Assembly (NCBI RefSeq): GCF_055900595.2
Contig: NZ_CM148325.1
Length of the DNA: 64,000 nucleotides
Strand: one strand, 5' to 3'
The position numbers and the translations under genes are program-made. Below the pieces are notes generated by a model. It worked only from the letters and a program-made list of their open reading frames with translations. It searched no databases and was not told the origin of the DNA. The stretch's first letter is position 1; every line of letters begins with the position of its first letter. This document shows, piece by piece, positions 1,847-52,087 of the stretch.

Positions 1847-2896
1847 TTATGCGATGACGCTTTGAATCACATAGTTAATCGCACCACCACCAACAATCAG
1901 CCAGGCAAACAGTACCAGAGCCATCAGCAGAGGTTTCGCCCCGGCTTTTTTCAGCGCGCTGACGTGAGTGGTCAGACCCAGCGCCGCCATCGCCATTGCC
2001 AGCAGGAAGGTATCCAGCGTTACCAGCATATTCACTACGCTCTGCGGTAACAGGTGGAACGAGTTAAAGATGGCAACGACGATGAACAAGATGGCAAACC
2101 ACGGAATAGTGATTTTGCTTTTCTCGCCGCTGTTCGCCCCAGACAGCTGTTTAACACGCGCCGCCAGCAGGATGAGGAACGGAGCCAGCATCATCACGCG
2201 CAGCATTTTGGAAATAACTGCTGCGTTTTCTGCATCCGGGCTGATGGCATGACCTGCCGCCACCACCTGCGCCACTTCGTGCACAGTAGAACCAATGTAG
2301 ATACCGAAAGTTTCCGGACTAAACCATTGAGACATCAGCGGATATATCGCCGGGTAGAGGAAAATCGCGACGGTACCGAAGATAACAACGGTTGCAACAG
2401 CCACGGTTACTTTACTGGCTTCCGCTTTCACTACCGGCTCAGTCGCCAGTACCGCGGCAGCACCACAGATACTGCTACCGGCACCGATCAACCAGCTGGT
2501 GTGCTTATCCAGACCAAACACTTTCTGCCCCAGGAAACAAGCCAGCAGGAAGGTACTGGACAGCGTCAGCACGTCAATGATGATCCCACTGATACCGACA
2601 TCGGCAATTTGCGAGAACGTCAGACGGAAGCCATAAAGAATGATACCCAGACGTAATAAATATTGCTTGGCAAACAGCACGCCACCGTCACAGCTTTTCC
2701 AGATGCGCGGATAGATGGTGTTGCCTAAAACCATCCCCAACAAGATTGCGAGGGTGAGGGCACTAAACCCGGCACCCGCAACCGCGGGAATGGAACCACC
2801 CCACAGGGCGACCCCGGTGATAACTGCACTCAGGGCTAACCCCGGAATAAAATGCCACAGTGTACGATGTTGTTTCTGTAAGGTGATATTCGTCAT
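1847..2896 (-). CDS. yeiH: Inner membrane protein YeiH (UPF0324 family)
   Basis: 349 aa hydrophobic ORF; divergent from LysR regulator yeiE as in K-12. Confidence 0.9.
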
Positions 2897-2949
2897 AACC
2901 CTCTCCTTTAACCGGGCATAAGGTTACGACTAACTGGTTTAAAAATAAA

Positions 2950-2973
2950 ATTGATTATATATTTATAATCAAT
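2950..2973. promoter_or_regulatory. Perfect 10-4-10 inverted repeat ATTGATTATA-TATT-TATAATCAAT in yeiH/yeiE divergent promoter (LysR-type T-N11-A-like site)
   Basis: Read directly in sequence; sits between divergent yeiH and LysR-family yeiE start codons. Confidence 0.55.
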
Positions 2974-2994
2974 CTTTATAAGTGGTAAGCGACT

Positions 2995-3876
2995 ATGCAC
3001 ATCACCCTCCGGCAGTTGGAAGTTTTTGCAGAAGTATTGAAAAGTGGATCAACCACCCAGGCGTCGGTGATGCTGGCGTTGTCGCAATCAGCAGTGAGCG
3101 CAGCCTTGACTGACCTGGAAGGGCAGCTTGGCGTGCAACTGTTTGATCGCGTGGGGAAAAGACTGGTTGTTAATGAACACGGGCGGCTGCTCTATCCGCG
3201 TGCGTTGGCACTGCTTGAACAGGCGATTGAAATCGAACAACTGTTTCGCGAAGACAACGGCGCGATTCGTATCTATGCCAGTAGTACTATCGGTAACTAC
3301 ATTCTGCCTGCAGTCATTGCCCGTTATCGCCATGATTATCCGCAGTTGCCGATTGAACTTAGCGTTGGGAACAGCCAGGACGTGATGCAAGCGGTGCTGG
3401 ATTTCCGCGTTGATATTGGCTTTATTGAAGGACCGTGCCACAGCACTGAAATCATCTCTGAACCGTGGCTGGAAGACGAGCTGGTGGTTTTCGCCGCGCC
3501 GACTTCGCCGTTGGCTCGTGGTCCGGTCACCTTAGAGCAGCTGGCTGCCGCGCCGTGGATCCTGCGTGAACGCGGTTCCGGCACGCGGGAGATTGTCGAT
3601 TATCTGTTGCTGTCACATTTACCGAAGTTTGAGATGGCAATGGAATTAGGTAACTCCGAGGCAATCAAACATGCGGTGCGTCATGGATTGGGAATTAGTT
3701 GCCTGTCGCGACGGGTCATTGAAGATCAATTGCAGGCAGGCACATTAAGTGAAGTTGCGGTCCCTCTGCCGCGCCTGATGCGTACGTTGTGGCGTATACA
3801 TCATCGGCAAAAACACCTTTCCAACGCGCTACGGCGCTTTCTGGACTATTGCGATCCCGCGAATGTACCGCGTTAA
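2995..3876 (+). CDS. yeiE: LysR-family transcriptional regulator YeiE
   Basis: 293 aa ORF with N-terminal HTH ([38 protein letters not shown]). Confidence 0.92.
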
Positions 3877-5550: not shown

Positions 5551-5571
5551 GTTTCCTCCCTTCTTTGCTAA

Positions 5572-5597
5572 GCCCTCTCAACCGAGAGGGCTTTTTT
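5572..5597 (+). terminator. Rho-independent terminator after lysP
   Basis: GCCCTCTC-AACC-GAGAGGGC hairpin followed by TTTTTT. Confidence 0.8.
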
Positions 5598-7822: not shown

Positions 7823-7832
7823 TGCGAAGATG

Positions 7833-7854
7833 CCCGGCGTCGATCCCGCCGGGC
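7833..7854. terminator. GC-rich hairpin after cirA (possible bidirectional terminator)
   Basis: GCCCGGCG-N6-CGCCGGGC, 8 bp stem; no strong T-run. Confidence 0.5.
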
Positions 7855-7880
7855 ATAATCCCAGAAATTCGCTTCTGGCT

Positions 7881-20092: not shown

Positions 20093-20140
20093 TATTGCCG
20101 GATGCGCCGCATCCGGCAATCGGTGCCAAATGCCGGATGC
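20093..20140. repeat. REP-like palindromic element downstream of mglC
   Basis: GCCGGATGCGCCGCATCCGGCAA ... GCCGGATGCG motifs. Confidence 0.7.
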
Positions 20141-32448: not shown

Positions 32449-32590
32449 TGCACAGAAAACCCCCAGCTAGGCTGGGGGTTCCGGAAAGCTTTCAGCTTTG
32501 AGCCAGTTATTAAAACCCCTTTTGATTTGTTAAAACACCTTGCGGTCTGGCAACTGCAAGTGTCAAACAAGAAATCAAAAGGGGGTCCCA

Positions 32591-39624: not shown

Positions 39625-39795
39625 GTAGGCAGGATAAGGCGTTTACGCCGCATCAGGCATTCGGAGCACAATGCCTGATGCGATGCTTGCGCATCTTATC
39701 AGGCCTACAAACGTGACGCGTCCGTAGGCAGGATAAGGCGTTCACGCCGCATCCGGCATTCGGTGCACGATGCCTGATGCGATGCTTCTATTTGC
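39625..39795. repeat. Cluster of REP elements (BIME-like) between pbpG and dld
   Basis: Repeated GCCTGATGCGATGCTT / GGCAGGATAAGGCGTTTACGCCGCATC units in alternating orientation. Confidence 0.85.
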
Positions 39796-52060: not shown

Positions 52061-52087
52061 GGCGGCCATGCGAAAAACATGGCCGCC
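52061..52087. terminator. Bidirectional hairpin terminator between convergent yehS and yehR
   Basis: GGCGGCCATG-CGAAAAA-CATGGCCGCC, perfect 10 bp stem. Confidence 0.75.

Follow-up and report, generated by a model that had tools for sequence, protein, structure and literature searches.

An inverted repeat in the divergent yeiH-yeiE control region as the probable main operator of the sulfite-sensing regulator YeiE

We found that the spacer between the divergent genes yeiH and yeiE contains an interrupted inverted repeat, which we propose, with considerable though not full confidence, to be the principal operator, one of high affinity, through which the LysR-type regulator YeiE acts on their shared control region. 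This reading draws on the conservation of the repeat, which stands above that of the first and second codon positions of yeiE, and on published fragment-level data, namely a ChIP peak, a gel shift, autorepression and a sulfite- and YeiE-dependent yeiH activity, for a regulator that itself binds sulfite. It is further based on a distance to the yeiH ATG that is fixed against one to the yeiE ATG that varies, on the recurrence of the dyad core, of a yeiH-strand TAnnnT and of a third half-site-like element (box R, see below) beside YeiE proteins of 49-68% identity, on a left arm that is invariant although it is needed by no -10 hexamer, and on the placement of the FinR operator in P. aeruginosa, which follows the same logic. 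The regulator, its binding to the spacer region, its autoregulation and its control of yeiH are already published; what is new here is an operator candidate at the level of base pairs, its fixed geometry to a putative yeiH promoter, the third half-site and the recognition of perfect symmetry as a rare allele.

The yeiH-yeiE locus and its inverted repeat

The window (the whole 64-kb stretch of DNA that was analysed) is E. coli chromosome; of the 5426 E. coli genomes that are complete, 5425 match a 501-bp stretch around the repeat. The flanking genes are yeiH and yeiE according to RefSeq, which annotates E. coli DNA identical to this, and the MG1655 record agrees. Window positions convert to MG1655 as NC_000913.3 coordinate = 2252613 minus window position, which places the repeat at 2249640-2249663. 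The divergent spacer measures 98 bp, and the region has an A+T content of 69%. The features are:

1847-2896, minus strand: yeiH, inner-membrane protein of the Pfam family PF03601, target of YeiE
2995-3876, plus strand: yeiE, LysR-type sulfite-sensing regulator with the Pfam domains HTH_1 and LysR_substrate
2950-2973, no strand: interrupted inverted repeat, proposed primary YeiE operator, composed of ATTGATTATA (2950-2959), TATT (2960-2963) and TATAATCAAT (2964-2973)
2970 (NC_000913.3 2249643), no strand: polymorphic C/T, where C gives perfect 10-bp arms and T gives 9 of 10 pairs

Read directly from the window, the arms ATTGATTATA and TATAATCAAT are perfect reverse complements of 10 nt each, just as the first-pass annotation had described them, and 21 bp separate the end of the repeat from the yeiE ATG (2995), in keeping with the roughly 20 bp given there. 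The further description as a perfect 24-bp palindrome overstates the case, since the TATT spacer is not self-complementary and the element is an interrupted inverted repeat. The T-N11-A architecture also assigned to it fits loosely, because the axis of symmetry falls between two bases (2961/2962), so that the symmetric T/A pairs are spaced as T-N10-A or T-N12-A. A symmetry scan of the spacer gave 2961.5 as the best centre (11 of 12 symmetric pairs), and extension by a repeat finder takes the arms to 13 nt at 92% (2947-2959 and 2964-2976). A weaker, odd-centred dyad that does have the T-N11-A form, TTATAA-N7-TTATAA (centre 2972, T2966-A2978), overlaps the right arm.

When the 64 kb are searched for inverted repeats whose arms reach 10 nt or more and whose spacer does not exceed 8 nt, the yeiH-yeiE repeat stands alone in being AT-rich; the five other such sites (nine overlapping calls) are GC-rich and of terminator or REP type. 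Repeats of this kind number 0.5 per window in first-order Markov simulations. Arms of 10 nt were reached in 0.2-0.4% of trials when the 98-bp spacer was shuffled and in 2% when its 45-bp AT-rich core was. Symmetry by itself is suggestive, and it is conservation that carries the case. The window has no further copy of the repeat within 3 mismatches, and the degenerate dyad pattern occurs in it at chance frequency.

Perfect inverted repeats, mostly GC-rich and with arms no shorter than 10 nt, lie at window positions 20094-20120, 5570-5593, 7830-7856, 32458-32480, 39652-39679 and 52061-52087. Those just after lysP (5570-5593) and just after cirA (7830-7856) both look terminator-like, and the one at 20094-20120 (GCCGGATGCG/CGCATCCGGC) resembles a REP-type element. 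A 10-nt direct repeat (CATAACCCTC / CATCACCCTC) at 2894-2903 and 3000-3009, across both divergent start codons, is probably a chance match.

Conservation of the repeat in Enterobacteriaceae

Scanning genomes with YeiE, we obtained 80 loci in as many species of Enterobacteriaceae (YeiE 83-100% identical), with yeiH divergent to yeiE in 79 of them and the 80th lying on a contig that has no upstream sequence. The sequences were anchored on the repeat and then scored column by column (n=80). The first-pass annotation had named conservation of its palindrome in orthologous intergenic regions as one of its checks, and 18 of the 24 columns proved invariant in these species, with a mean of 1.92 bits. 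The left arm is invariant in all 10 columns (mean 2.00 bits) and the right arm in 6 of 10 (mean 1.86 bits). By comparison, the third codon positions of yeiE, our yardstick, are invariant at 4 of 279 positions (1.4%; mean 0.77 bits), which yields a binomial P of ~1e-28 for the whole repeat, and even the first and second codon positions (61% invariant; mean 1.77 bits) fall below it. The repeat is the most constrained element of the spacer. The conserved block exceeds it, extending roughly from 2938 to 2989, and a separate short conserved box is found at 2919-2928. The conservation of the right arm may in part be a promoter constraint, as this arm doubles as a -10 hexamer (see below); right-arm variants are accompanied by no compensatory left-arm changes in the 80 sequences.

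The repeat keeps a nearly constant distance from the yeiH ATG, 55-57 nt in 74 of the 80 sequences, as against 41 to 190 nt from the yeiE ATG. The longer distances to yeiE in several Citrobacter are due to an insertion of ~125 bp. This element has inverted ends (TATACCCGTCATACTTCAAGTTGCA ... TGCAACTCGAATTATTTAGGGTATA), separates the conserved block from the yeiE ATG and is displayed at about 125 bp by L011, L014, L016 and L018 and in shorter form by L020 and L049. Its insertion point corresponds to about window 2987/2988, right after the GGTA of box R, and delimits the constrained region on the right; it resembles an ERIC-type intergenic repeat.

The perfect symmetry of the arms is strain-specific and reflects a rare E. 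coli allele. The MG1655 spacer differs from that of the window at a single base, T for C at 2970; a 60-mer with the T allele is matched exactly in 5361 of 5425 E. coli genomes (98.8%), and the C-allele 60-mer of the window in 16 of the 5425, including Z0117EC0005 and 2013C-4282. That most E. coli carry the imperfect repeat counts against the operator reading. When the 80 Enterobacteriaceae sequences are counted by sequence variant, C occupies the position in 26 and T in 52, and the relatives with YeiE of 68% and 53% identity have C at the equivalent of 2970. As C occurs commonly in Enterobacter and Kosakonia as well as in more distant relatives, the T of E. coli may be the derived state.

Promoter elements and box R

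Around and within the repeat, we found the following candidate promoter elements and a further conserved box:

2964-2969, plus strand: TATAAT, probable yeiE -10 within the right arm, retained in L083 and L087 (see below), with a yeiE start predicted near 2976 (NC_000913.3 about 2249637, minus strand)
2939-2944, plus strand: TTAAAA, candidate -35 of yeiE at a 19-bp spacer, predicted in PMC3946193, with columns 2939-2943 nearly invariant
2926-2921, minus strand: TAACCT, putative -10 of a weak YeiE-dependent yeiH promoter, with a start predicted near 2914 (NC_000913.3 about 2249699, plus strand)
2949-2944, minus strand: TTTATT, putative weak -35 of yeiH, abutting the left arm, 17 bp from the putative -10 and replaced by TTTACC in some species
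2978-2989, plus strand: box R, ATAAGTGGTAAG, conserved and resembling a half-site, at an offset of 31 bp from the left half-site

The yeiE promoter was predicted as TTAAAA-19-TATAAT by Shimada 2014, where genomic SELEX showed that the RNA polymerase sigma-70 holoenzyme alone binds the spacer (PMC3946193). A sigma-70 consensus scan of 2800-3100 on both strands called no promoter; TATAAT is present, and its best -35, TTAAAA, is 19 bp away, outside the 16-18 bp expected of sigma-70 spacing. On the yeiH strand, the T, the A and the final T of the TAACCT hexamer (2926, 2925 and 2921) are its only invariant positions in the 80 species, with the middle three bases varying. This is the signature expected of a sigma-70 -10 element, from which we infer a weak yeiH promoter, TTTATT-17-TAACCT, with a start near 2914. 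A yeiH-strand TAnnnT lies at one and the same offset from the dyad in five of six lineages (TAACCT, TAACCT, TATGCT, TACAGT and TAAAGT) and 1 bp off in the sixth. Relative to this putative start, the dyad would be centred at about -47.5, with the left half-site at -39 to -44 and box R at -70 to -75. Such a centre, set against the canonical -65 of LysR recognition sites, is a point against the operator reading. Box R, with a mean information of 1.78 of 2 bits across the 80 species, is possibly a secondary YeiE contact.

Distant relatives of YeiE

The word-indexed protein search gave close relatives only; as distant relatives, we took representatives of YeiE-like clusters and placed them on contigs. 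A divergent PF03601 gene lies beside the YeiE-like gene in L083 (68% identity), L087/L088 (53%), L089/L090 (52%) and L093 (49%), and in L091 (YeiE 50% identical) the PF03601 gene is downstream. The part of the repeat that is kept in these distant YeiE-like/yeiH-like divergent pairs is its core:

2953-2970, no strand: core dyad GATTAT-N6-ATAATC
E. coli: GATTAT-ATATTT-ATAATC
L083 (YeiE 68% identical): GATTAT-ATTTTT-ATAATC
L087 (YeiE 53% identical): GATTAT-TTTTGT-ATAATC
L089 (YeiE 52% identical): GATAAT-TTCCTT-ATAAGT
L093 (YeiE 49% identical): GAATAA-AATTAA-TTAAGC

When aligned on the left half-site, a G[AG]WWAW-N6-WTWAKY dyad is kept in all the PF03601-linked relatives, and an AAAA-N2 run precedes the dyad in all of those aligned. 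The half-site-like box at +31 bp reads GGTAAG in E. coli, GATAAG in L083, GGTTAA in L087 and GGTATA in L089. The upstream regions of L084/L085, L086 and L094, which have other neighbours, contain no comparable dyad.

Some YeiE-like regulators are linked to genes of other kinds. In L095:2-862 (minus) with L095:971-1879, such a regulator (48% identity) is divergent to an anion channel of the SLAC1/TehA family (PF03595), which is not a YeiH homologue and is possibly an alternative sulfite-export partner; the L095 spacer contains CTGGATAA, a FinR-type half-site (see below). At L086:181-537, and at L094:1-1070 with L094:1158-1691, YeiE-like regulators (~48-51% identity) have sulfur-related neighbours: a rhodanese in L086, and in L094 an Rrf2 regulator together with a cysteine-desulfurase-like gene (Aminotran_5).

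Published evidence on YeiE

[quoted passage not shown] Hong 2022 reported that YeiE binds both sulfite and the cysJI promoter (PMC8931317). In Salmonella, Westerman 2026 found that a fragment spanning the whole spacer is gel-shifted by purified YeiE, that yeiE promoter activity is higher in a yeiE deletion (autorepression), that yeiE expression is raised by sulfite in a YeiE-dependent manner, that the yeiH promoter is undetectable without sulfite and YeiE and that a yeiE mutant is sulfite-sensitive (PMC12880088). The gel-shift and reporter promoter sequences in the supplement of that study include the repeat in its T form, unmarked, and its discussion states that the specific sequences bound by YeiE are still to be defined (PMC12880088); a search for the sequence string of the repeat in the text of the searchable papers did not find it.

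The first-pass suggestion that the repeat is a likely YeiE site serving both autoregulation and control of yeiH is supported by these data at the level of fragments (the ChIP peak, the gel shift, autorepression and a yeiH activity dependent on sulfite and YeiE) and by conservation. A point against the operator reading is that the promoter of cysJ, a reported YeiE target, contains no similar or degenerate dyad, with the best match there having mismatches at 10 of 24 positions.

Alternative explanations

The alternative that fares best, which we still regard as improbable, is that the arms are two back-to-back -10 elements, a plus-strand TATAAT at 2964-2969 for yeiE and a minus-strand TATAAT from 2959 to 2954 for yeiH, so that conservation would report recognition by polymerase only and YeiE would bind elsewhere (box R or the GGTTAC region). 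Perfect TATAAT hexamers are indeed present in both arms, the right arm is less conserved outside its hexamer, compensatory changes between the arms are lacking and the spacer was selected by the RNA polymerase holoenzyme alone in genomic SELEX (PMC3946193). However, the invariant columns reach well past the hexamers, into TAAAATTG (2946-2953) and the spacer of the repeat, the consensus scan found no full promoter on either strand, and another -10-like hexamer, with its invariant T, A and final T, lies 27 bp nearer yeiH in all lineages. Moreover, yeiH is undetectable without YeiE and sulfite, and the yeiE mutant is sulfite-sensitive, which indicates that the perfect yeiH-strand -10 does not drive yeiH; a yeiH gene that is silent without YeiE is not what a minus-strand TATAAT acting as a free promoter would give.

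Far less probable is that the repeat is the site of another protein, either an AT-tract binder (IHF, H-NS or Fis) or a dimer of the FNR/CRP type, with YeiE on a neighbouring element. The FNR consensus is TTGAT-N4-ATCAA, and IHF recognizes the core WATCAA within the full consensus WATCAANNNNTTR. The region is 69% A+T, FNR-type half-sites are contained in the arms (TTGAT at 2951-2955 and ATCAA at 2968-2972), and on one strand the left arm has the sequence AATCAATTTT, which comes near to the IHF core. Yet the TTGAT and ATCAA are 12 bp apart rather than 4 bp, the right ATCAA is destroyed by the common T allele (98.8% of E. coli), and the full IHF consensus is matched on neither strand, so the FNR and IHF site readings are rejected for wrong spacing or incomplete consensus. 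The two-fold symmetry and the strict linkage to YeiE-like genes (49-100% identity) point instead to the cognate regulator, and IHF, H-NS, Fis and FNR/CRP have no known link to the yeiH-yeiE spacer. A Fur box was also considered and rejected, with only 6 of 19 matches to the consensus by eye.

Least credible of all, and rejected for its weak fold and lack of covariation support, is a nucleic-acid structure (a DNA cruciform, or a hairpin in a transcript starting upstream): the single-stranded DNA fold reaches -7.8 kcal/mol, with z about -5 against shuffles, but the stem is weak and nearly all A-T with one G-C pair, the natural right-arm variants, T for C at 2970 and the TATAACCTAT of Trabulsiella, are uncompensated in the invariant left arm, the repeat would be untranscribed given the putative start sites, and no T run follows it as in a terminator.

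A proposed mechanism for YeiE action

With the repeat as the YeiE operator, we propose that one DNA-binding pair of the YeiE tetramer would occupy GATTAT-N6-ATAATC as its anchoring site. The right half-site coincides with the probable yeiE -10, TATAAT, and YeiE occupancy would thereby compete with RNA polymerase and cause autorepression. The left half-site, at about -39 to -44 of the weak yeiH promoter and next to its putative -35, would place the bound subunit so that it could contact or recruit polymerase. Without sulfite, the second DNA-binding pair would probably settle on the weaker box R (2978-2989), 31 bp or three helical turns off. Sulfite is then predicted to reshape the YeiE tetramer, following the sliding-dimer scheme of LysR regulators, bringing polymerase to yeiH and lifting part of the block on yeiE.

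We also consider, as a speculation of low probability, that YeiE exemplifies a non-classical layout, in which an even-centred anchoring dyad at an activation position (~-47.5) doubles as the regulator's own -10 and a lone third half-site (box R) lies exactly three helical turns away on the regulator side. Here, sulfite would release the distal contact instead of sliding the dimer toward the target, and the C/T at 2970 would tune the symmetry of the dyad and hence the set-point of the sulfite response.

YeiE and YeiH have lately come to be recognized as the sulfite-stress response of enteric bacteria, with a bearing on food preservatives and host defence. The operator candidate, with its core GATTAT-N6-ATAATC, its fixed offset to the yeiH promoter, its third half-site and its C/T variant, offers a direct basis for designing footprinting experiments, operator mutants and sulfite biosensors. 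The finding fills in a circuit already known; the kind of system is not new.

Comparison with known LysR-type systems

Like YeiE, CysL of Bacillus subtilis and CysB, in their control of cysJI, belong to the LysR regulators and act on sulfite or sulfur metabolism, and CysL shares ligand-site residues with YeiE according to Hong 2022 (PMC8931317). They differ in that the E. coli cysJ promoter is without a YeiE-type dyad.

FinR is named as the YeiE homologue in P. aeruginosa (PMC12880088). The FinR box of the finR-fprA divergent promoter, mapped by mutagenesis (Boonma et al. 2017), consists of overlapping dyads, TATCCATATTCTGGATAAGCATTATCCAGA, and is located between the -35 and -10 of finR and upstream of the fprA -35, at -46 to -83 of fprA (PMC5302815). 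The E. coli spacer also has two overlapping dyads, with centres at 2961.5 and 2972, and the FinR box mediates both autorepression and activation, as reported for YeiE. The systems differ in their target (fprA as opposed to yeiH), in the position of the box (-46 to -83 of the target promoter, against about -36 to -59 predicted for the main E. coli dyad) and in the half-sites, which are TATCCA/TGGATA with an 11-bp spacing (TATCCA-N5-TGGATA) for FinR and GATTAT/ATAATC with a 12-bp spacing (6-bp gap) in E. coli. The E. coli repeat has neither the half-site sequence nor the spacing of FinR, which speaks against the operator reading, and the resemblance is a loose one (T-G-R-W-T-A).

The classical LysR recognition site is a 13-15 bp, odd-centred T-N11-A element near -65, such as the ATAC-N7-GTAT of BenM/CatM (PMC11495319). 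The E. coli repeat departs from it in having 10-bp arms, an even centre with symmetric T/A pairs spaced by N10 or N12, so that it has no 13-bp T-N11-A core with a base pair at its centre, and a putative dyad centre at about -47.5, a position usually held by activation sites. In common with the classical systems, it is a high-symmetry dyad, the most symmetric of the region, in a divergent regulator-target spacer; it overlaps the regulator's own (predicted) promoter, which goes with the autorepression seen in Salmonella (PMC12880088), and it is joined by putative weaker flanking contacts and by a ligand-dependent switch that activates the neighbouring gene. The repeat is probably a LysR-type operator that departs mildly from the textbook layout.
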